Assembly: GCA_963819655.1 (NCBI GenBank)
Contig: CAWFXA010000002.1
Location: forward strand, 1 to 64,000
Length of the DNA: 64,000 nucleotides
Direction of reading: 5' to 3'
Source: an uncultured Chloroflexia bacterium
GTDB taxonomy: Bacteria; Chloroflexota; Limnocylindria; Limnocylindrales; CSP1-4
In this document: positions 51,047-60,394 of the stretch, in pieces
Layout: every line of letters begins with the position of its first letter
Numbering within the stretch: the stretch's first letter is position 1
Made by a program: the position numbers and the translations under genes
Notes under the pieces: generated by a model
The model's input: the letters and a program-made list of their open reading frames with translations, nothing else
What the model was told of the DNA's origin: nothing
Database searches by the model: none

Positions 51047-51462
51047 CCGAACGCCAGGTCGTGGTCGGGACCGATGGCCGCGCCAAGGCGTATCGACCCC
51101 TACCGGCAGACGCGCGCATCGCCGCGGTCCGCGCCGGTCTCGAGGCCTACGCGGCCGGCGACTACTTCGAGGCGCACGAGCTGATGGAGCCTGCCTGGAT
51201 GGGCACGGCCGACCTGGCCGAGCGATCCCTGATCCAGGGGCTGATCAAGGTGGCTGCCGCGGACGTCCATGCGGTCCGCGGCAACCCGGCCGGTGTCCGA
51301 CGGAACCTCGAAGGCGCACGCGATCGACTGCGTTCCGGGGCGACGGGATCGATCACCGGCGTGGAGCTGGACGTGGCCGGACTCCTGGCCGCGATCGACG
51401 AGCGGCTTGCCCGCTCGACCGGCCTCGAGACGCCCATCTCGATCGACTGGAGGACACGATGA
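51043..51462 (+). CDS. DUF309-family protein
   Basis: GDYFEAHELMEPAW...LIQGLIKVAAA..H..RGN; ATGA-coupled to the upstream gene. Confidence 0.85.
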   Translation: MTERQVVVGTDGRAKAYRPLPADARIAAVRAGLEAYAAGDYFEAHELMEPAWMGTADLAERSLIQGLIKVAAADVHAVRGNPAGVRRNLEGARDRLRSGATGSITGVELDVAGLLAAIDERLARSTGLETPISIDWRTR

Positions 51463-51827
51463 ACGCTGGCCCGCCGATCCCGGCGATCGATGTCGCGGAG
51501 GCCGAGCGACGCCTCCGCGAGGACCCCGATCGACCGTTGCTCGTCGACGTGCGCGAGGAGAGCGAGTTCGTCGACGTCCGGGCGCCCGGTGCGGTGTTGC
51601 TGCCGATGTCCATGTTCGCGGCACGGGCCGGGGAGCTGCCCCAGGACCGGCCTCTGATGCTCGTGTGCCATCTCGGTGGTCGATCCTCGGCGGCGGCCGG
51701 GTTCCTGATCCGGTCGGGCCGGTCCGACGTGGTCAACGTGACCGGCGGGATGGACGCCTGGGAGCGGGGCGGCCTGCCCGTTCGCCGTGGCACGCCCGAG
51801 CCGGGCGAAGGCGACCTCCCGGGCTAG
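51459..51827 (+). CDS. Single-domain rhodanese
   Basis: LVDVREESEF...PGA...CHLGGRS...GGMDAW. Confidence 0.9.
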   Translation: MNAGPPIPAIDVAEAERRLREDPDRPLLVDVREESEFVDVRAPGAVLLPMSMFAARAGELPQDRPLMLVCHLGGRSSAAAGFLIRSGRSDVVNVTGGMDAWERGGLPVRRGTPEPGEGDLPG

Positions 51828-51847: not shown

Positions 51848-53311
51848 CTAGCGTACTCGGCGGACTACCCGAGAGATCATCGCGCGGGCCTGCGGCTTGT
51901 GGGCATACGCCCACCCGATGATGATCAGGAGCACGAAGGTCACCGTGCCGACGCCGGCCGCGTTGGCATACCCGAGCTGCTGCCCGATCTCACCGTCGAT
52001 CTTGAGGCCGGGGACGGTCGCGCCGAACGGGCCGAGCTGGAAGAACGGGCTCTGGGGCGACGTATTCGCACGGACGCTGGATGTCACCACGCCGGCGGCC
52101 GTCTCACCGCCGGTGATGATCACGTTCGGGCCCGTCACGAAGGAGCTGCCCCCGGTCATCCCGATGGGCAGGTCGCTGACCGGCAGGTGCTTCCACTCGG
52201 TGATCGTCCCGTCGTTCTCCGGGATCGACCAATAGAGCTCGGTCTTGGGGCCTTCGTTGTCTGCGCCGCCGACCAGGTACAGCGTCCCGTTGGCGGTCCA
52301 GCCTGCGGGATCGTCGCGAGCCGCCGGCAGGTTCCACGCATTGTCGATGTCCCACTTGACGACCTTGCCCTCGTCCGCGTTCACCGGGAACCCTTCCGGA
52401 GCCTCGAGGCCGACCGTGCCGCGTTGGACAGCCCCGACAGGGCCGGCCTCATCATGGCCGCCGTACAGCAGGACGTAATCGCCGACGATCGCGGCGATCG
52501 CGTCGGCCTGTGGCCTCGCAAGCGGGGCTTCGGTCTGCCACCCGCCGAGGACGCCCTTGACGTCGAGCAGGCTCTTGTAAGTCGTCGTAACGGGGCCATC
52601 CGGGCCTTCGCCACCGATGAGCAGCAACCCGTCGGGCGCGGCCACACCCGCAGCCCCGCCGCGCCCTTCGGGCAGGGCCAGGCTATCGACCGGCGTCCAC
52701 TCCACCAGCACGCTGGTCTGCGGGTCGGGCGTGAGCGCGTACACCGTCGTTGTCGGGGCACCCTCGGCGTCGAACCCCCCGATCACAAAGACGGTGCCTG
52801 ACACGGCCACCACGCTTGCATCGGTCCGTGGCTCGGGCAACGGCGGGCCATCCTGCCACTTGTCGAAGTTGCCGGTGCCTGACAGGTTGGCCACGAACAC
52901 GGTCGACTGCGCGGTCGTGCCGTCTGACCCGCCGATGTACAGGATCTTCGTGCCGAGCTGGATCGCGCTGCCATCGGTCCGGGGCGCCGGAAGCGCAAGC
53001 TCGGGCGGCGACGCGTGCCACGGCACGATGGCGCCACGCGGCGCCGGGCACGGGAGCGTTTCGTTCTCGGACGAACAGAAGTTGATGGGCGACCACACGA
53101 GCAGCCCGAGGTCGACCGTGCGGTTGACTGTCAGGTAATACGCCCGATCCGGGAGATAGCCGAGCAACAGGATGATGATCACGAGCCAGACGAATGCTTT
53201 GATGCTGGCCCACGTCCAGCCGTCGGCGTCGAGCAGGCCGAAGAGTGCCCGCCTCTTCGGCACGATCATCCCGGGCCCGAGGGCAGGACGCGTGGTCCCG
53301 GTGGCGCTCAT
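51848..53311 (-). CDS. Kelch-repeat beta-propeller protein with N- and C-terminal TM helices
   Basis: Repeated LP.PR...hhhhGG...W units (ILYIGG, VFVIGG, LLLIGG, VLLYGG, LYLVGG, VIITGG); ATGA overlap with the cytochrome c gene. Confidence 0.8.
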   Translation of the reverse strand: MSATGTTRPALGPGMIVPKRRALFGLLDADGWTWASIKAFVWLVIIILLLGYLPDRAYYLTVNRTVDLGLLVWSPINFCSSENETLPCPAPRGAIVPWHASPPELALPAPRTDGSAIQLGTKILYIGGSDGTTAQSTVFVANLSGTGNFDKWQDGPPLPEPRTDASVVAVSGTVFVIGGFDAEGAPTTTVYALTPDPQTSVLVEWTPVDSLALPEGRGGAAGVAAPDGLLLIGGEGPDGPVTTTYKSLLDVKGVLGGWQTEAPLARPQADAIAAIVGDYVLLYGGHDEAGPVGAVQRGTVGLEAPEGFPVNADEGKVVKWDIDNAWNLPAARDDPAGWTANGTLYLVGGADNEGPKTELYWSIPENDGTITEWKHLPVSDLPIGMTGGSSFVTGPNVIITGGETAAGVVTSSVRANTSPQSPFFQLGPFGATVPGLKIDGEIGQQLGYANAAGVGTVTFVLLIIIGWAYAHKPQARAMISRVVRRVR

Positions 53312-54384
53312 TCGGCCGTGAGGGTGCCGGTCATGTTCGGGTGGACCGAGCAGATGAACGGATAGTCACCCGCGGCGAGGGCCGGGACGTTGTAGTCCGC
53401 CTCGGCGACGCCTGTGATGATGTCGCCCCGAACGATGACCTGACCGCTGGAGTCGTTGACCTGGACGTTGTGCGCCACGCCGGTCTCGTTGTTGGCGAAA
53501 TGGATGACGAAGGCCTCGTCAGCGGGCGCGGTCACGGTGCTCTGATCGAAGGCACTGCTCGAGCTCGTCGAGATCTCGACGACCGTCGCATTCGGATCCG
53601 GCGTGGCGGCGGGCGACGTGCCAGGCGACGCACTCGCGCCGCCGGTGAGCGCGTCGAGGTAACAATCCGGGTAGGGCGTCGCCCCGGGAGCGGGCTTGTA
53701 GTTCGGGTCGCGCCAGCCCGTGAAGGTGATGACCTCACCTGTGATCGGGTCCTTCTTCGGATCGAGCAGATGCTCGTCCCGGACGATGTATGTCGTGTCG
53801 TTCGTCGCGAGCAGGAACGCGATGAGCTCCTCGATCTGGCGATAATTGAGCGGCCCCGCCGGATTGCCCTGGTCCGACCAGATCGGCATCTTGGAGAGCG
53901 GGTTGCCGCAGACATAGCGGCCACCGACGGTCAGCACGTTCCGGATGTATGCCTCGTTGAGGTGGCTGAACAGCTTCTCCTGGCTGTTGAGGGTCGGGCC
54001 CTCCCCGCCCTCGCCGTCGACCCCATGGCAGCGCGCGCAATTCGCCTCGTAGATGAGATAGCCGCGCTCGACCTTGGCGACCTGCTGGGCGTCGATCTCC
54101 ATGGCCTGACGGGCCGTCGTGAGCCCGCCCGGGGCGCCCAGCTCGTAGAACCAGTACAGCGAGACGAACAGGATGATGACGATCAGCGCGAGGAAGCCGA
54201 CCCAGCGTGCGTTGGCCGACTGGCGAACGACCTGGGCAGCCCGTTCCGGCGAGAACTCGATCCTGCGGATCGACGGTGGCGACGTGAACCGGTCGACTGG
54301 CGCGACCTCGTCCGGCGGGCGAACGGCGGGCAGGCGCTGCTCGGGCTCGTGCCCCTCGGGCTCGCGTCCGGGCGTATCGGTCAT
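53308..54384 (-). CDS. Membrane-anchored monoheme cytochrome c fused to a C-terminal cupredoxin (blue copper) domain
   Basis: TM helix, NCARCHG, KMPIW (Met ligand), Pro/Ala linker, then AHNV...YPFICSVHPNMTG type-1 Cu motif; gagggg RBS before MTDTPG. Confidence 0.9.
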   Translation of the reverse strand: MTDTPGREPEGHEPEQRLPAVRPPDEVAPVDRFTSPPSIRRIEFSPERAAQVVRQSANARWVGFLALIVIILFVSLYWFYELGAPGGLTTARQAMEIDAQQVAKVERGYLIYEANCARCHGVDGEGGEGPTLNSQEKLFSHLNEAYIRNVLTVGGRYVCGNPLSKMPIWSDQGNPAGPLNYRQIEELIAFLLATNDTTYIVRDEHLLDPKKDPITGEVITFTGWRDPNYKPAPGATPYPDCYLDALTGGASASPGTSPAATPDPNATVVEISTSSSSAFDQSTVTAPADEAFVIHFANNETGVAHNVQVNDSSGQVIVRGDIITGVAEADYNVPALAAGDYPFICSVHPNMTGTLTAE

Positions 54385-54424
54385 CGGTCCCCTCGAGCGG
54401 TCGGGTCGATCACTGGCATGCCGC

Positions 54425-55099
54425 TCAGATGCAGCCGGTCGGAGTGCGCGGCGGGATGATGCCCGGCTGCCCGAGCGCGACAGGGAGTGGCCCCAGGGTG
54501 ATCTTGCCAGTATCGATCGAGAGGGCGCCGCCGCCATCGACCGAGATGGAGAACCGGTCCATCCCGCGCGGCGCCGGGCCGTACTGCGCACCGTCGGCCT
54601 TGATCCCGAGCCGGTCGTAGCGCGACCCATGACAGGGACACTCCAGCCAGAAGTTCTTCAGGCACGGGTTGGGCTTGCAGCCCAGGTGCGGGCAGCGCTG
54701 GTAGAGGGCCCGCACATTGAGCGCCGACCCGTCGCCGCTCGTGTCCTCGCCGGCGACGAACCGTTGCTGGGCCGGGTCCTTGAGGATCACGAACGCCCTG
54801 GCCTCGGGGAAGTAGGCCGGGAAACCCTCCGCGATCGGCAGAGTGCTGTTGAGCGTCTTGACCTCGTCGAGCGTGCCGATCCGCAGGACGCCGCCGAAGC
54901 CCTTGCGGAGGGCGGGCCAGGCGAAGGCCAGCGTGCCGGCCAACGCCTCGAGGGTTCCGAGCGCGATCCCCGCCCCGAGCGCGACGCGCATCAGCCGGCG
55001 TCGGGACATGCCCTGCACCTGTTCCTTGCGCAGCGACTTGATGGCCTCGGACGTGAGGGCGGCGGGCTGGGCGGCGGGTTCGACCTGGTAATTGCTCAT
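54425..55099 (-). CDS. petC: Rieske [2Fe-2S] subunit with Tat signal
   Basis: MSRRRLMR, TM helix, CPHLGC and CPCHGSRYD, GPAPRGMD. Confidence 0.93.
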   Translation of the reverse strand: MSNYQVEPAAQPAALTSEAIKSLRKEQVQGMSRRRLMRVALGAGIALGTLEALAGTLAFAWPALRKGFGGVLRIGTLDEVKTLNSTLPIAEGFPAYFPEARAFVILKDPAQQRFVAGEDTSGDGSALNVRALYQRCPHLGCKPNPCLKNFWLECPCHGSRYDRLGIKADGAQYGPAPRGMDRFSISVDGGGALSIDTGKITLGPLPVALGQPGIIPPRTPTGCI

Positions 55100-55106
55100 G
55101 ACGGAC

Positions 55107-55709
55107 CTACAGCGAGAAGTACATGCCAGGGGCGGTCACGAACGGGATGACGAACGTGTAGCCCGGGCCACGGAAGAAGATCCCGACGAACGTCAGGACC
55201 AGGCCGAGGATGCAGAACAGCGTGAACAGGACCACCGCAGTCTTTCGCTGCGAGGGCCGCGTGACCAGGAGGTCGCCGCGATCGACATACGGGATGAATG
55301 CCGCCCCGACGAGCACGAAGGTCGGCGCGAGGACGCCTGCCACGACCGGATGCAGGTAAGCCAGAAGCTCCTGGAGTCCGAGGAAGTACCACGGCGCCTT
55401 GGCGACAGCCGGAGTGACGTTGCCGTTCGCCAGCTCTTCGAGGGGCGCGTTGATGAACAGCCCCATGAGCAGCAGGAAGATCGACATCACGCCGGCCGCC
55501 AGGAACTCGATCGACAGCAGATGCGGCCAGGTCATGACCGTGTCGTCCGGTTCCTTCTGGACGCGGACGACGGCGTCCTGCTTGACCAGCGCGAGCAGCC
55601 GATACGGCCGCGCCGACATCGGCACGCGCTGCTTGTCGATCTCGGTCCGCCGCGCCGGGTCGACGGGCAACACCTCGCGCCGCGTCGTCGGATCCTTCGT
55701 ATCCGTCAT
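55107..55709 (-). CDS. petD: Cytochrome b6/b subunit IV (C-terminal half of split cytochrome b)
   Basis: TWPHLL..EF, APLEELAN...TP...KAPWYFLGLQELL, IPYVDR...RPSQR; three TM helices. Confidence 0.88.
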   Translation of the reverse strand: MTDTKDPTTRREVLPVDPARRTEIDKQRVPMSARPYRLLALVKQDAVVRVQKEPDDTVMTWPHLLSIEFLAAGVMSIFLLLMGLFINAPLEELANGNVTPAVAKAPWYFLGLQELLAYLHPVVAGVLAPTFVLVGAAFIPYVDRGDLLVTRPSQRKTAVVLFTLFCILGLVLTFVGIFFRGPGYTFVIPFVTAPGMYFSL

Positions 55710-55827
55710 TCGAACTGCCTCGCGGGCCAATAGGAGCATTCAGCGCAAGGCGGCGACGAGCACGCGAAAGAGCGCATCTCAGGATGCGTGAGTGAGCGCG
55801 CGCAGGAGCCAACGCGGCGATGGATGC

Positions 55828-56556
55828 TCATAGCGGCCCGCTGATCCCACCATCTTTTCGGATCCGCCAAAAGTGCACCGTAAGAAAGATGGCCGCGATG
55901 AGCGGCAAGAACACGACATGTCCCACATAGAAACGGATAAGGGTGTTCTGGCCGACCTCGACGCCGCCCAGCAGGATCCGATTGACCGGTGTGTTGAAGA
56001 TCGGTACGTAGCCACCCATGTTGGTGCCGATCGTGATGGCCCAGAAGGCGATCTGATCCCACGGCAGCAGATAGCCCGTGAAGCTGAGCATGATCGTCAG
56101 GAACAACAGGACGACGCCGACCACCCAGTTGAACTCGCGCGGCGGCTTGTATGCCCCGTGGTAGAAGACCCGCATCATGTGCAGGAACACGAAGAAGACC
56201 ATGAGGTGGGCGCCCCACCGATGGACGTTCCGGGTCAGCAACCCGAAGGTGACCTCGCTCTGGATCTCGAGGATGTTCGTGTACGCCAGGGTCGCGGACG
56301 GCACGTAGAAGAACATCAGGTACACGCCCGTCACGGTCAGGACGAGGAACAGGAAGAACGACAGCCCGCCGAGGCAGAACGTATAGGCGAACTTGACCGC
56401 GTGCTGGCGGACGCGGACCGGGTGGATGTGCAGGAAGACGTTGTTCATGACCGCGTACGCGCGCGAGCGCTCGTCCCGCGGGTAGGGCTGCCGGAAGAGG
56501 GACCGCCAGACCGGGCTGCGCCGGATCGTCTGGTCGACCCGCTCCAGGAAACTCAC
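55828..56556 (-). CDS. petB: Cytochrome b6-type (split) cytochrome b
   Basis: FCLGG (heme ci Cys), RNVHRWGAHLM...LHMMRVF, PREFNWVVG, GYLLPWDQ, RFYVGHV...HFWRIRKDGGISGPL. Confidence 0.95.
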   Translation of the reverse strand: MSFLERVDQTIRRSPVWRSLFRQPYPRDERSRAYAVMNNVFLHIHPVRVRQHAVKFAYTFCLGGLSFFLFLVLTVTGVYLMFFYVPSATLAYTNILEIQSEVTFGLLTRNVHRWGAHLMVFFVFLHMMRVFYHGAYKPPREFNWVVGVVLLFLTIMLSFTGYLLPWDQIAFWAITIGTNMGGYVPIFNTPVNRILLGGVEVGQNTLIRFYVGHVVFLPLIAAIFLTVHFWRIRKDGGISGPL

Positions 56557-58388
56557 CGGGCTCCTCCTGCGACGCCGGGGGTTCCGGCCAGCTGCGCATC
56601 CCGGTACGACTCCTTGTAGAGCCGTCCGTCAGTCGAGATCTCCTGCATCTCGAACCGCTCCATCGTAATGGCGTCGAACGGGCACCGCTTGACACACAAC
56701 GCGCAGCGGATGCAGCGCTCCTCGTCGAGGATCATCGCGCCGCCGTTCTCCCAGCCATAGGCCTCTTCCAGCTCCGGCAGGAGGCCCTCCGACTTGAGCG
56801 TGTTGATGTCGGTCATGTGGATGACGCCCTCGGGGCAGACATCGGCGCAGGCGCCACACAGGACGCAGCGGAACGGGTCGAACCAGATGTTGTAGTTGCA
56901 CATGAGGCAGCGGGTCGACTCGGCGACCGCGCCATTCGCGTCGTACCCGAGCTCGACCGGCGTGTTGAAGTTGACGATCGGATCGGTCGATGGCATCCGA
57001 GCCTGGAGCGGGACCATCGGGATGTGCTGTCGAGGAAGCACGTCGTAGAACTCGGGCATGTCGTGGCGCCACGAGCTCGTGACCTTCACGTTGGCGTCGA
57101 CCGTCACGTCGGTCCGCCCGGCAAGGTACCGGTCGAGCGCATAGGCGGCCTTCTTGCCGTGCCCGGCCGCCTCGATCAGTGTCGTCGGGCCGGTCACGAA
57201 GTCGCCGCACGCGAACACGCCACGGACGTTCGTGGCGTACGTCGCGGGGTCGACCTTGACCCGGCCGCGATTGATCTCGAAACTCGCCTCGACCGGGAGG
57301 AACGTGAGATCGGCCGCCTGCGACACGGCCGGGATGACGGTCTTGGCCGGGACGATGAACTCCGATCCCTCGATCGGGACAGGGGAGCGTCGACCGGACG
57401 CGTCCGGCTCGCCGAGGCGGTTGCGGATGAACTTGACGCCGGTGACCTTGCCGTCCTCGCCGAGCACCTCGATCGGGCTGGCCAGGAACTCCATCCGGAC
57501 GCCCTCGCGCTCGGTCTCGCCGAGCTCCTCCTCGTCGACGACGAGCTCGGAGCGGGTTCGCCGGTAGGCGATCGTCACGTTCTCGGCGCCGTGGCGCAGG
57601 CTCGTGCGCGAGCAGTCCATCGCGGTGTACCCGCCGCCGATGACGACGACGTCATTGCCCACCTCGAGCGGCTCACCGAGATTGGCGCGCTTCATGAAAT
57701 CGACGCCGTAGTCGACGCCGTCGAGGTCGGCACCCGGGACGTCCAGGGCGACGGCGTCCATCGCTCCGGCGGTGATGGCGATCGCGTCGAAGTCGCGCTG
57801 GAGCTGATCGAACGTGATGTCCTTGCCGATCGTCGTGTCGTAGATGAACGTGACCCCGAGGCGCTCGATCAGGCGGATATCCATCTCGATCGCCTCACGC
57901 GGAAGGCGGAATGCCGGCACGCCGATGAGCATCGTGCCGCCGCCGTACGGCAGGCTGTCGAACACCGTGCACTGGTAGCCCTTCATCGCCAGCTCGCGGG
58001 CGACGGACAGGCCGGCCGGGCCGGCACCGACGATGGCGACGCGCTCGGATCGCTGCGCGATGTCGGGCATGACGTCCGGGATGCCGGACGCCTCGTGCCA
58101 CTCGACGAGGAACCGCTTCATCGCCCGGATCGCGAGCGGGCGATCGATATCGCCGCGCCGGCATGCCCGCTCGCACGGGGCGGAGCAGACGTACGAGCAC
58201 ATCGCAGCGACCGGGTTCGGTTCGCGCGACAGGATGTAGCCCTCTTCGAACCGGCCCTCGGCGGCGAGGTTGAGATAGCCCCGGCAGTTCGTCCCGACAG
58301 GGCAGGCTTCCTGGCATTCGATGTTGCACTGCAACCAGGAGGCGTCGACAGGCTGGACGAGGAATTCCTGGGCTGGATCGATGGCCAA
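56553..58388 (-). CDS. GltD/NfnB/DsrL-like FAD- and NAD(P)-binding FeS oxidoreductase with C-terminal 2x[4Fe-4S] ferredoxin
   Basis: CQEACPVG..C, CSYVCSAPCERACRR, GAGPAG, GGGYTAMD, YRRT, GDFVTGP, RCLMC, CVLCGACADVCP, CIRCALCVKRCP; TTG start after ggaaagg; GTGA overlap with cytochrome b6. Confidence 0.9.
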   Translation of the reverse strand: MAIDPAQEFLVQPVDASWLQCNIECQEACPVGTNCRGYLNLAAEGRFEEGYILSREPNPVAAMCSYVCSAPCERACRRGDIDRPLAIRAMKRFLVEWHEASGIPDVMPDIAQRSERVAIVGAGPAGLSVARELAMKGYQCTVFDSLPYGGGTMLIGVPAFRLPREAIEMDIRLIERLGVTFIYDTTIGKDITFDQLQRDFDAIAITAGAMDAVALDVPGADLDGVDYGVDFMKRANLGEPLEVGNDVVVIGGGYTAMDCSRTSLRHGAENVTIAYRRTRSELVVDEEELGETEREGVRMEFLASPIEVLGEDGKVTGVKFIRNRLGEPDASGRRSPVPIEGSEFIVPAKTVIPAVSQAADLTFLPVEASFEINRGRVKVDPATYATNVRGVFACGDFVTGPTTLIEAAGHGKKAAYALDRYLAGRTDVTVDANVKVTSSWRHDMPEFYDVLPRQHIPMVPLQARMPSTDPIVNFNTPVELGYDANGAVAESTRCLMCNYNIWFDPFRCVLCGACADVCPEGVIHMTDINTLKSEGLLPELEEAYGWENGGAMILDEERCIRCALCVKRCPFDAITMERFEMQEISTDGRLYKESYRDAQLAGTPGVAGGAR

Positions 58389-58651
58389 GCGGGCGTGCCT
58401 TTCCGTGGATTGGTCGGGCTCGGGGCGCAACGTGATGATCGGCTGTTCGCCGACCGCCCGAATCTACCATTGGCCTCGTGAGCGCTGCAAAGCGCGGCCG
58501 GGTGCGGGCGAGCGGGTGGCCGGCTGCCGGGAACCCGTTCTCGCGCACGCGTCACAGGTTGACGCTGACCCGTGTTCGCAGCTACGCTGGCCATCCGGGG
58601 GAACCCGCCCGTGCTCGGTGAGGGGCGCGATCGGATGGAGTTGCGGACAGC

Positions 58652-60394
58652 GTGACCGGGAGCGAGTTCGTCTTCCTGGCGTTCGGCCTGATCCTCGGGA
58701 TCGCCGCGGGTGCCGCACTCATCGAGTTCATCCGGGCACGGCGACCCGCGAGTGCAGTGCGCGTGATCGTAGCTCCGGACGCGATCCCTCGTCGTCGCGC
58801 CGCGACCCTCGCCAACGATGCATTCACCGACTCACCGGTCGTGCTGGATCCGGCACACGGAGGGCCGGCCGACCGCCAGGACCTGCTGTCGAACAACGGC
58901 GTGACCGCGCCCGCACTTCGAACACCTGTTCTCGCACCGCAGCCAGGGACGGTTGCCGAGCCGGCCTTCCGGCTGACCGGTCCGACGCCTCCGAGCGTCG
59001 GTCCTCTCGTGCCAGGCTCCCCGGGTCGGGCCGTCGCGCAGGGGATGCCGATCTCGACCGGCATCGACCCGATGCTGCTCGCCTTGCGGGCGAGCGCCGC
59101 GGCGAGTGCTGAGGCGGCCATGCACGGTGCCGCCGCGCCGGTCGCCACGGCCGTCATGACCGAGTCGGACGAGCCGGCCGAGGTTGCTGCGACGGCGAAC
59201 CCGACGTCGACGAAAGGTCGCGCGACGAAGGGTGCGAGCCGGGCGGCGCCAGAAGCCCCGTCATCGACCGAAGCCCCGAGCGGACCGTGTGGCGATGCGC
59301 GCCGCATCGCCGATGAGCGTTGCGAGCTCGCGACCCGAGCCCGAGGTCAGGCGACCACGGCGGAGGAGACCCTTCGGGCAGCGCAGCGGGCCTACGACGA
59401 CCACGAGACCGCCATGGCGGAGGCCGCCACGGCAGCCGACGCCCGGGCGATCCGCGAGGCCAAGGACCAGGCCCAGGCACGATTCCGCGCAGGGCGGGCC
59501 GCGGCGCGGACCGCGGAGGACATCGAGAACGCGGCACGCGACTGGCTCCACGAGATCAATCGGATCAACGCCCAGACCGGCAACGCGACGGCGATCCTCC
59601 AGCGCGCGCGGGCCGCCGCCCCCGAGATGGCGGTCCGCCTGGAGCGGACGGCGGTCGCGGCCGATGGCGCGCGGGTCGCGGCCGAAGCCGCCGAGGCGGC
59701 GTGCGTGGCGGCCCGTCAGGCCGTGGCGGATTGCGAGGAACGCGCCACCAGCGGCCGGCCGAGCCCAGCGCCGACCGATACGGGCGACGATCGCGACCGG
59801 GACGACACGACGTCCGACACCCTGGTGGCCGCGCTGCGCGCCGGGGCGTCACCACGGATCGTGCGGCTGCTGCGCGGCGACCGGACGGCGATGCACGAGG
59901 TCGTCGATGCGCTCGGTGGCAACGACGCCGACGAGCGACGCCGATGGCAGGTCGCGATCGCCGATCTGATCGACGCGATCGTGGTGGATGCGATCGCCGC
60001 GTCCGCGTTCGACTTCCCGACCGACCATCCGTTCTGGGGCCCGTTCAACCGGTCGCAGGGTCGAGACATCGCCGCCGCGCTGTCGTCACTCGGGTATCGA
60101 TTCGATGGGCTTGGCGGCTGGGTGGACGATCGGTACCCGTCGCAGCGCGACCTGTCGCTCGCGCTGGGCTATGCCGGGCTCGACCCGATGCGGATGCGCC
60201 ACTGGCCGAACGACGCCGAGATGGCGACGCTGTTCGAGGAGGTCGAGGTGGCCGCTGCGGAGCACCTTGCCAACACGGCCGGCGACCTCACGCTTGGCGA
60301 GCTTGTCGCGATGCTCGGGCGACGGGCCGACGGCATGGCGGACATCTGGAACGAATGGGGGCGGATCAGGCCGATCCTGCTAGACGAGCGCTGA
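58652..60394 (+). CDS. Hypothetical membrane-anchored protein (TM, disordered linker, coiled coil, globular C-domain)
   Basis: 580-aa intact ORF with an N-terminal hydrophobic helix, an Ala/Glu/Arg heptad-like segment and an aromatic-rich C-terminus. Confidence 0.75.
   Translation: MTGSEFVFLAFGLILGIAAGAALIEFIRARRPASAVRVIVAPDAIPRRRAATLANDAFTDSPVVLDPAHGGPADRQDLLSNNGVTAPALRTPVLAPQPGTVAEPAFRLTGPTPPSVGPLVPGSPGRAVAQGMPISTGIDPMLLALRASAAASAEAAMHGAAAPVATAVMTESDEPAEVAATANPTSTKGRATKGASRAAPEAPSSTEAPSGPCGDARRIADERCELATRARGQATTAEETLRAAQRAYDDHETAMAEAATAADARAIREAKDQAQARFRAGRAAARTAEDIENAARDWLHEINRINAQTGNATAILQRARAAAPEMAVRLERTAVAADGARVAAEAAEAACVAARQAVADCEERATSGRPSPAPTDTGDDRDRDDTTSDTLVAALRAGASPRIVRLLRGDRTAMHEVVDALGGNDADERRRWQVAIADLIDAIVVDAIAASAFDFPTDHPFWGPFNRSQGRDIAAALSSLGYRFDGLGGWVDDRYPSQRDLSLALGYAGLDPMRMRHWPNDAEMATLFEEVEVAAAEHLANTAGDLTLGELVAMLGRRADGMADIWNEWGRIRPILLDER

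Follow-up and report, generated by a model that had tools for sequence, protein, structure and literature searches.

A flavoprotein-headed Rieske/cytochrome b6 operon of Limnocylindria: kinship with the anammox complexes and a variant haem-copper exit

Rieske/cytochrome b complexes bearing a flavoprotein have been noted as a class before (Dibrova 2017; Hauser 2025), and the association of the flavoprotein with Rieske/cytochrome b proteins beyond the anammox bacteria is already in print (Dibrova 2017). In the anammox bacterium Kuenenia, where the complexes Kuste4569-4574 and Kustd1480-1485 represent this design, the subunits were found together in complexes (de Almeida 2016, as cited by Dibrova 2017 and Hauser 2025). 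Potentials of +303 and +335 mV were reported for the Kuenenia Rieske proteins, and AlphaFold3 models contain four clusters that form a path to flavin adenine dinucleotide (FAD) (Hauser 2025). Dibrova 2017 and Hauser 2025 contain no biochemistry of the flavoprotein. Earlier, Kao and Hunte 2014 had defined an uncharacterised 'APWY clade', with Chloroflexi and Planctomycetes among its members. Here we describe a six-gene operon headed by such a flavoprotein in an uncultured Chloroflexia bacterium. It lies in a stretch of 64,000 nucleotides (contig CAWFXA010000002.1, positions 1 to 64,000 of the forward strand; G+C content about 70%), which is called the window throughout. The operon is not a new kind of system. 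By its motifs and gene content it very probably belongs to the class already noted, as a member of the APWY or 'subfamily G' type of Dibrova with a variant exit. The new points are the order-level exit through a cupredoxin and a Kelch protein, the pattern of orphan flavoproteins, and a histidine (His43) that is invariant in comparison to a dispensable haem ci cysteine. No description in Limnocylindria or Chloroflexota was found in literature searches, although the trees in Fig. S1 of Dibrova 2017 may list Chloroflexota cases.

According to the open reading frame (ORF) map and the Pfam and NCBIfam assignments, six genes of the same (minus) strand are packed into positions 51848-58388 of the window:

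56553..58388, minus strand: NADP(H)/FAD iron-sulfur flavoprotein, 611 aa, TTG start (Pfam, NCBIfam, PDB sequence search, AlphaFold2, Foldseek)
55828..56556, minus strand: split cytochrome b6, 242 aa, GTG start (PF00033, E 1.8e-46)
55107..55709, minus strand: subunit IV, 200 aa counted from M11, alternative start at 55739 (PF00032, alignment)
54425..55099, minus strand: Rieske [2Fe-2S] protein (PF00355, motifs, PDB matches)
53308..54384, minus strand: monohaem cytochrome c-cupredoxin fusion, 358 aa, membrane-anchored (PF00034/PF13442 and PF13473)
51848..53311, minus strand: Kelch beta-propeller protein, last gene of the operon (Kelch Pfam families)

The stop codon of the flavoprotein gene and the GTG start of cytochrome b6 overlap by 4 nt (GTGA), and the cytochrome c-cupredoxin and Kelch genes overlap by 4 nt as well (ATGA). 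The remaining gaps amount to 118 nt between cytochrome b6 and subunit IV, measured to the M11 start, 7 nt between subunit IV and the Rieske gene and 40 nt between the Rieske and cytochrome c genes. The M11 start of subunit IV is favoured by relatives whose alignments begin at residue 11, and the start of the cytochrome c-cupredoxin gene at 54384 is backed by relatives aligning from residue 1. An earlier reading of these letters, made from the sequence only and without database searches, had proposed a six-gene operon at this place with a GTGA coupling of the flavoprotein to cytochrome b6; all six genes and the overlap were found as described there.

Comparison with the anammox complexes reveals a largely shared architecture. 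Similar to the window, the Kuenenia complexes possess a split b6-type cytochrome b with a CxGG motif and His43, a separate subunit IV and a cytoplasmic flavoprotein of roughly 600 aa that matches the window protein in domain order and in PDB neighbours. For Kuste4570 these neighbours are 9bp5 and 5t5i (Hauser 2025), the same pair as obtained for the window flavoprotein. The Kuenenia Rieske proteins 9rk4 and 9rk3 are the nearest solved structures to the window Rieske protein. Also in the Scalindua and Brocadia loci, Rieske protein, flavoprotein, cytochrome b and subunit IV are encoded together. The differences concern mainly the exit, which consists of a monohaem cytochrome c-cupredoxin and a Kelch protein in the window, whereas hexa- or octahaem cytochromes or an HAO-like protein are found in anammox bacteria. 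Unlike there, the gene order of the window begins with the flavoprotein, whose N-terminal domain holds eight cysteines compared to six in the anammox proteins, and the host is an O2-respiring, soil-type member of the Chloroflexota.

To the flavoprotein, Pfam assigns a Fer4_20 domain (residues 33-115), a Pyr_redox_2 domain (130-425) and two Fer4 domains (515-589); transmembrane-like segments are absent. The FAD Rossmann motif reads GAGPAGL and the NADPH-type Rossmann stretch GGGYTAMD...YRRT, of which we take YRR as a mark of NADPH preference. Among the 27 homologues linked to a Rieske/cytochrome b operon, nearly all share six of the eight cysteines of the Fer4_20 domain, with C21 and C35 occurring in Limnocylindria only (20 of the 27). 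The C-terminus exhibits ten cysteines invariant in this set, arranged as two CxxCxxCxxxCP motifs and one CxxC and followed by a conserved tail. Based on these motifs, the protein is predicted to carry about four [4Fe-4S] clusters.

The best PDB sequence matches are NfnABC (9bov, 364 bits), NfnB (4ylf, 293 bits) and GltD (2vdc, 222 bits). Sequence and fold searches agree on NfnABC (9bov/9bp5), StnABC and NfnB, followed by GltD, and on FwdF (5t5i) for the tail. For the AlphaFold2 monomer model, the core of which reaches a predicted local distance difference test (pLDDT) score of 70-97, Foldseek returned 9bov_A as the top match (E 3e-49). Structures of NfnABC/StnABC and NfnB (9bov, 8oh5, 9n5u, 4ylf, 5jca) share with the window protein the NADPH/FAD pair and the N-terminal dicluster over residues ~20-500. 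However, NfnABC and NfnAB are bifurcating transhydrogenases, soluble enzymes in which the module pairs with a NuoF-like or NfnA partner, whereas the partner in the window is, by context, a membrane cytochrome b6. Unlike the NfnABC/NfnB modules, the window flavoprotein also ends in a dicluster ferredoxin domain of its own.

An assignment to known families was tried with curated cut-offs, and all scores remained below them (TIGR01317, 201.6 against 447.7 bits; TIGR01318, 268.6 against 482.95 bits; TIGR01316, 332.5 against 471.75 bits). True GltD was rejected on the basis of the first two scores, the lack of a GltB neighbour and a separate position in the tree. A grouping with true GltD, which would have counted against the sequence-only reading, was thus not observed. 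NfnB of NfnAB was rejected with the third score and since no NfnA (PyrK-like) gene is adjacent; neither a GltB- nor an NfnA-like neighbour occurs in the window flanks. DsrL has what we presume to be a similar domain order; no dsr genes were found among the flank genes scanned.

Among cluster representatives at 50% identity, full-length relatives of the flavoprotein were found at 40-43% identity, with named members from Nitrospinota, Thermincola and Brocadiaceae/Ca. Wunengus. Species-representative genomes were scanned with an alignment headed by the Wunengus flavoprotein, which yielded 80 loci. Cytochrome b6, subunit IV and the Rieske gene lie beside the flavoprotein gene in 17 of them, namely two from Scalindua, one from Brocadia sapporoensis, four from Acidobacteriota and ten of Limnocylindria type. 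A FastTree analysis with 95 rows separates 64 other GltD-like proteins from a single clade (support 98) that unites all 23 linked flavoproteins with six 'orphans', which are full-length homologues encoded among unrelated genes. The same clade of linked and orphan flavoproteins was obtained in a quick IQ-TREE run with 44 rows (Shimodaira-Hasegawa-like approximate likelihood-ratio test, SH-aLRT, 94). In a careful IQ-TREE analysis, ten linked and five orphan proteins are united with an ultrafast bootstrap of 100 and an SH-aLRT of 98, and this clade spans Limnocylindria, Brocadia, Acidobacteriota and the Chloroflexota family f12. Here the Scalindua flavoprotein is placed outside, whereas it falls inside the linked clade in the FastTree and quick IQ-TREE analyses. 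One clade of all 16 including Scalindua costs 0.9 log-likelihood units and is not rejected (approximately unbiased test, p 0.48). In the cytochrome b6 tree, the Chloroflexota genomes grouped with Limnocylindria are precisely the orphan-bearing ones (90/96), and the anammox and Acidobacteriota proteins form another linked clade (98/94). The anammox likeness put forward from the sequence only is thus supported by a flavoprotein that groups with the Rieske/cytochrome b-linked ones of Brocadia and Acidobacteriota.

To follow the operon within the phylum, a sample of 301 Chloroflexota genomes was used, including five unpublished ones (G038, G227, G173, G272, G145) that enter the totals solely as counts. 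The class Limnocylindria is represented therein by the families f1 (the window's own), f2 (its sister) and f3. Cytochrome b6 matches with E<=1e-20 occur in 185 of the 301 genomes, flavoprotein matches with E<=1e-120 in 66. Of the 27 Limnocylindria genomes with both genes, 26 have the flavoprotein gene immediately upstream of cytochrome b6; in the 27th (G124) both are found at contig ends. Because of this recurrence the arrangement is not a chance juxtaposition. Six genomes of the window's own family possess neither gene, and G187, one of these six, has at the syntenic position only 1.5 kb between the 580-aa ORF and the DUF2203 gene, where none of the six operon genes is present. The link of flavoprotein and cytochrome b6 claimed by the earlier reading therefore survives a check of co-conservation, with both genes adjoining in 26 of 27 genomes and both absent from six.

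Operon order was compared in sixteen Limnocylindria loci. The full six-gene order is present in all five f1 loci that extend far enough; in the sixth (L067) the contig end cuts the cytochrome c-cupredoxin gene. Both f2 loci exhibit the full order as well, including the Kelch gene. All eight f3 loci contain the first five genes, with a cytochrome c that lacks the cupredoxin part, and no Kelch gene. Among the loci compared, the cupredoxin/Kelch exit is confined to the window's own and one sister family. Flavoprotein-free operons of other Chloroflexota share with the window the order of the four core genes, a cytochrome b6 of 58-64% identity and the motifs FLHxHP, CxGG, APWY and CPCHGSxY; unlike the window, they show no cupredoxin or Kelch match.

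Outside the class, 20 loci with a cytochrome b6 of 42-64% identity were inspected, and a single one contains a linked flavoprotein. In this genome (G294, family f12) a flavoprotein of 32% identity is encoded beside a long fused cytochrome b without CxGG (L062:13715-17214, minus strand). In its second Rossmann motif GGGxTA is replaced by GDDDSA, and YRR is missing, so that this protein may no longer bind NAD(P)H.

Orphan flavoproteins of 597-648 aa and 40-45% identity were found in five other Chloroflexota families (loci L053-L057, L060 and L061; families f23, f27, f15, f8 and f42). Of 51 non-Limnocylindria genomes with a close b6 type (E<=1e-96), 37 carry an orphan, compared to 2 of 217 genomes without this b6 type; the thresholds were set post hoc, and the genomes, being related, are not independent. 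The orphans nest inside the Rieske/cytochrome b-linked clade and may, despite their location, act as subunits of b6 complexes whose genes lie elsewhere in the genome.

A further variant belongs to a subfamily other than the Rieske/cytochrome b-linked clade. In two genomes of family f58 (G244, L058:6893-9907, minus strand; G260, L059:1358-3688, plus strand) NuoH is fused to a GltD-like flavoprotein that ends in a dicluster tail and shares 42-44% identity with that of the window. The flavoprotein occupies the place of NuoI in a nuoB-C-D-H~flavoprotein-J-K-L-M-N operon, and each of the two genomes holds four further NuoF-like genes elsewhere. By this fusion the flavoprotein module would serve as the input to a quinone reductase in that subfamily. 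No description of a NuoH-flavoprotein fusion was found in the literature search.

The cytochrome b6 of the window contains the four haem-ligand histidines and exhibits the split four-helix form with a separate subunit IV. It aligns with residues 33-215 of chloroplast and cyanobacterial b6 including FYCLGG (E 8.7e-52). The CxGG motif for haem ci (cn) is given by FCLGG, with C61 aligned to Cys35 of b6. The b6 alignment begins at residue 59 and is preceded by an N-terminal extension of 58 residues that contains His43. All 27 cytochromes b linked to a flavoprotein have this histidine, whereas the haem ci cysteine is present in 23; the four without it are all from Acidobacteriota. Haem ci can therefore not be a universal port, which weakens its proposed role, in the sequence-only reading, as the electron port on the cytoplasmic side. 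In the AlphaFold3 models of Kuenenia, His43 of Kuste4571 ligates a proposed extra haem b (Hauser 2025). As a marker of the flavoprotein-bearing form His43 was rejected, because it is kept in 23 of 24 aligned Chloroflexota cytochromes b, linked to a flavoprotein or not, and hence marks the clade and not the flavoprotein.

Subunit IV has three transmembrane-like segments, and its Qo motif APWY is part of AKAPWYFLGLQE, a stretch that is invariant in 27 of 27 linked operons. The Rieske protein combines a twin-arginine signal/anchor (SRRR) with the motif CPHLGC...CPCHGSRY, which contains the Ser-Tyr signature. Its best PDB matches are 9rk4 (Kuste4569, E 6.1e-11) and 9rk3 (Kustd1480, E 7.7e-10), with the next at 1e-5. 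Ser-Tyr and APWY were likewise rejected as markers of the flavoprotein-bearing form, as both are present in unlinked relatives too. For the cytochrome c-cupredoxin protein a transmembrane-like segment (61-79), the haem motif CARCH at residue 116 and a PF13473 domain with the copper loop CSVHPNM (C..H..M) were found; the PDB search gave weak cytochrome c matches only. The Kelch protein carries transmembrane-like segments at 35-53 and 451-469. Only generic Kelch proteins were matched in the PDB, which gives no functional lead.

The Ext module of Geobacter (ExtO/ExtP/ExtQ, selenite/tellurite cluster) shares the APWY-type split cytochrome b with the window. According to Jahan 2018, that cluster encodes a porin and a rhodanese besides multihaem cytochromes and lacks a flavoprotein. 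The window cytochrome b6 lies marginally above the NCBIfam cut-off for ExtP (293.2 vs 290 bits) and subunit IV below that for ExtQ (56.4 vs 150 bits). With the ExtQ threshold missed and no Ext-type multihaem or porin neighbours, an ExtOPQ module was rejected. The name ExtP, which is to be expected from automatic annotation, is likely a mis-annotation of this protein.

The host genome (3.49 Mb, 91% complete) belongs to a lineage whose flavoprotein homologues of 87-94% identity carry the NCBI names Candidatus Limnocylindrales or Chloroflexi; named loci are those of Ca. Limnocylindrus (84% identity) and Ca. Limnocylindria (52%). It contains a NuoF gene set with two NuoF-type genes, two COX1 genes and a second Rieske/cytochrome b system (G000:C2:774745-780356, minus strand), in which a 486-aa QcrB-like cytochrome b lies directly upstream of an 807-aa ORF containing COX1. 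The QcrA/QcrC-like ORFs before this second cytochrome b are assigned by position only. Given the NuoF set, the two COX1 genes and the second cytochrome b, the operon constitutes one more quinol-oxidising branch in a bacterium that respires O2. At G000:C2:430775-434553 (plus strand) a NuoF-like gene is followed by a gene for a protein of ~870 aa that begins with a 2Fe-2S part and also contains several 4Fe-4S motifs and a GltD-like NADPH/FAD module, the latter sharing 39% identity with the operon flavoprotein. This locus looks like an NfnABC/StnABC-type bifurcating transhydrogenase. No NirK above the cut-off was detected in the genome; in the search for a NosZ propeller the control genomes were silent too.

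To the observed gene content, motifs, conservation and clade membership we add a model of the complex. The six genes would encode one membrane complex with a quinol-oxidising core of Rieske protein, cytochrome b6 and subunit IV and a periplasmic exit through a monohaem cytochrome c fused to a blue-copper domain. That the flavoprotein is physically associated with the cytochrome b6 complex is, in our judgement, probable. It would reside on the cytoplasmic face and dock at the n-side via its C-terminal dicluster domain. Electrons could then be exchanged along a wire from NADP(H) to FAD, the two clusters of the N-terminal domain, the two clusters of the C-terminal ferredoxin domain and the n-side haems of cytochrome b6, which are bH, ci and possibly a haem bound by His43.

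As for the direction, we tentatively favour NADPH as the donor. Electrons would pass to the n-side haems and quinone at Qi, and onward from Qo through the Rieske protein, haem c and copper to a haem-copper oxidase. The net result would be a self-contained NADPH:cytochrome c/cupredoxin oxidoreductase, comparable to ferredoxin:NADP+ reductase on the b6f complex or to Mitchell's 'donor d'. On the chloroplast b6f complex, ferredoxin:NADP+ reductase is an n-side NADP(H) flavoenzyme in cyclic flow, which is thought to feed haem ci/Qi. In contrast to the window flavoprotein it belongs to an unrelated family, is not operon-encoded with b6f and has no Fe-S wire. Such an NADPH-fed Q cycle appears to be the most likely direction in an aerobic heterotroph, even if we would not put it at even chances. 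NADPH oxidation is favoured because the carriers were found mostly in heterotroph-type lineages (Acidobacteriota, Chloroflexota), because it is simple and downhill, because a dehydrogenase, a bc core and an exit carrier in one operon make up a complete chain, because the operon is an extra branch in an O2 respirer, and because the related GltD-like module fused to NuoH is an input to a quinone reductase. According to established redox potentials, electron transfer from NADPH to quinone at Qi should be strongly downhill and would proceed without membrane crossing.

Several points weigh against this picture. In 19 of the 20 non-Limnocylindria loci no flavoprotein gene lies within the fetched flanks, of which one covers only 573 nt upstream; these 19 share the order cytochrome b6-subunit IV-Rieske-cytochrome c, and to judge from them the core operon can clearly work without the flavoprotein. 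The C-terminal ferredoxin domain, to which the docking is ascribed, is of low confidence in the AlphaFold2 model (pLDDT <50). Contigs of four RNA libraries (runs) from three studies cover the operon, two runs with all 30 of 30 bins and the remaining two with 18 and 25 of the 30. The junction of flavoprotein and cytochrome b6 is spanned by three contigs, one of them with 2 differences in 206 nt; these contigs prove neither a single transcript nor transcription, the libraries may contain DNA, and the depths offer no basis for ranking the genes. Sequence data do not tell in which direction the electrons move. The Ser-Tyr signature of the Rieske protein and APWY are tied in the literature to a high-potential Rieske protein (Kao and Hunte 2014), and Hauser 2025 argue that the potentials of the Kuenenia proteins fit NAD(P)+ reduction. 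Finally, neither an MqnA match nor a MenD above the cut-off was found in the host genome, so that neither of the two known routes to menaquinone was detected; at 91% completeness, absence is not implied.

The opposite direction was proposed for the anammox bacteria and taken up in the sequence-only reading: in the same docked complex, quinol would be bifurcated at Qo, with the high-potential electron passing to Rieske protein, haem c, copper and oxidase and the low-potential electron passing via bL/bH, the Fe-S wire and FAD to NADP+. The common clade of the flavoprotein with the anammox subunits speaks for this scheme, as do the Kuenenia Rieske potentials above +300 mV together with the cluster path to FAD in the AlphaFold3 models (Hauser 2025), the presence of CPCHGSxY and of APWY, the latter tied to mid-to-high-potential Rieske proteins (Kao and Hunte 2014), and the encoded high-potential copper/haem exit. 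Thermodynamically it is possible with a low-potential quinone and a high-potential Rieske cluster. However, Ser-Tyr and APWY are also found in the flavoprotein-free Chloroflexota operons and hence are no mark of a bifurcating reducer. The electron would have to move against the membrane potential, which would bring the reaction close to equilibrium, quinol-derived NADPH is of doubtful need to a heterotroph with other sources of it, the genome also contains the NfnABC-like locus, and the results for MqnA and MenD stand against this direction too. We consider NADP+ reduction a possible but rather unlikely function of the window operon.

It is improbable that the flavoprotein is co-transcribed with the b6 complex and remains undocked, as a soluble NADPH:acceptor oxidoreductase with a ferredoxin-like acceptor, of which the product or the regulation would suit co-expression. 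This explanation would account for the absence of a transmembrane segment and for the homologues of 40-45% identity that stand alone in other Chloroflexota families. On the other hand, the 4-nt overlap with cytochrome b6 is conserved across the class and both genes are lost together. Linked forms of three phyla fall into one clade with the orphans nested inside, and the orphans follow the close b6 type (37 of 51 vs 2 of 217, with thresholds set post hoc on related genomes). The Kuenenia subunits, moreover, occur in complexes (de Almeida 2016 via Dibrova 2017 and Hauser 2025).

Quite doubtful is a reversible redox valve, in which the docked module would bring the NADP(H) pool and the b haems of the n-side into redox equilibrium. 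Its task would be to relieve over-reduction at high proton-motive force and to limit semiquinone and reactive oxygen species, and not to provide a main route of catabolism or anabolism. The n-side haem/NADP couple is estimated to lie near equilibrium, based on potentials in Hauser 2025, the complex is one of two Rieske/cytochrome b systems in the genome, and the core of its relatives appears to work without the flavoprotein. The valve is, in turn, a purely inferential construct, and sequence does not separate it from the directional models. Effectively refuted is an ordinary GltD or NfnAB-type NfnB that merely adjoins a bc operon, as the homology to both families across residues 18-440 is outweighed by the missed cut-offs, the additional C-terminal dicluster domain, the lack of GltB- or NfnA-like neighbours and the clade separate from the 64 other GltD-like proteins.

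Returning to the docked complex, whether NAD(P)H is made by Qo bifurcation or consumed by an NADPH-fed Q cycle is a question of bioenergetics for the whole class. Throughout a class of Chloroflexota abundant in soil and freshwater, the design is a fixed feature and has a simple haem-plus-copper exit to O2 respiration. Comparative handles are given by related core operons with and without the flavoprotein, by orphans that track a b6 subclade, and by an invariant His43 next to a dispensable ci cysteine. Due to these handles, the question of direction is more testable in aerobes than in anammox bacteria. A more speculative and, on balance, unlikely extension would be that aerobic soil bacteria (Limnocylindria, the orphan-bearing Chloroflexota and Acidobacteriota) run a reversible quinol:NADP+/NADPH:cytochrome c b6 machine, with O2-pulled bifurcation at Qo via the His43 haem and four Fe-S clusters and with the orphans as subunits. 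If true, bc-type bifurcation into NADPH would be a widespread respiratory function and not an anammox curiosity.

The surroundings of the operon comprise the following features:

58389..58651, no strand: divergent intergenic region, presumed promoter region (ORF map)
58652-60394, plus strand: 580-aa ORF without Pfam match, divergent, just upstream of the operon (ORF map)
51456-51827, plus strand: rhodanese gene, convergent, just downstream of the operon (Pfam)

A promoter scan of the operon region gave no sigma-70-like match, and the putative promoter in 58389..58651 is deduced from the gene map only. Four terminator-like sites within cytochrome b6 are within chance (expected 2.0 +/- 1.4). Upstream, the 580-aa ORF is followed by a PIG-L gene; downstream, the rhodanese gene is followed by DUF2203 and short-chain dehydrogenase/reductase genes, and none of these genes is related to the operon. 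The 580-aa ORF is syntenic in six of six loci of the window's own family and has no match in the sister family. The rhodanese gene is syntenic with the operon in the five own-family loci that reach beyond it, and a rhodanese match is situated ~1.5 kb further downstream in one of the two sister-family loci. That the Ext cluster of Geobacter includes a rhodanese as well is probably coincidental.

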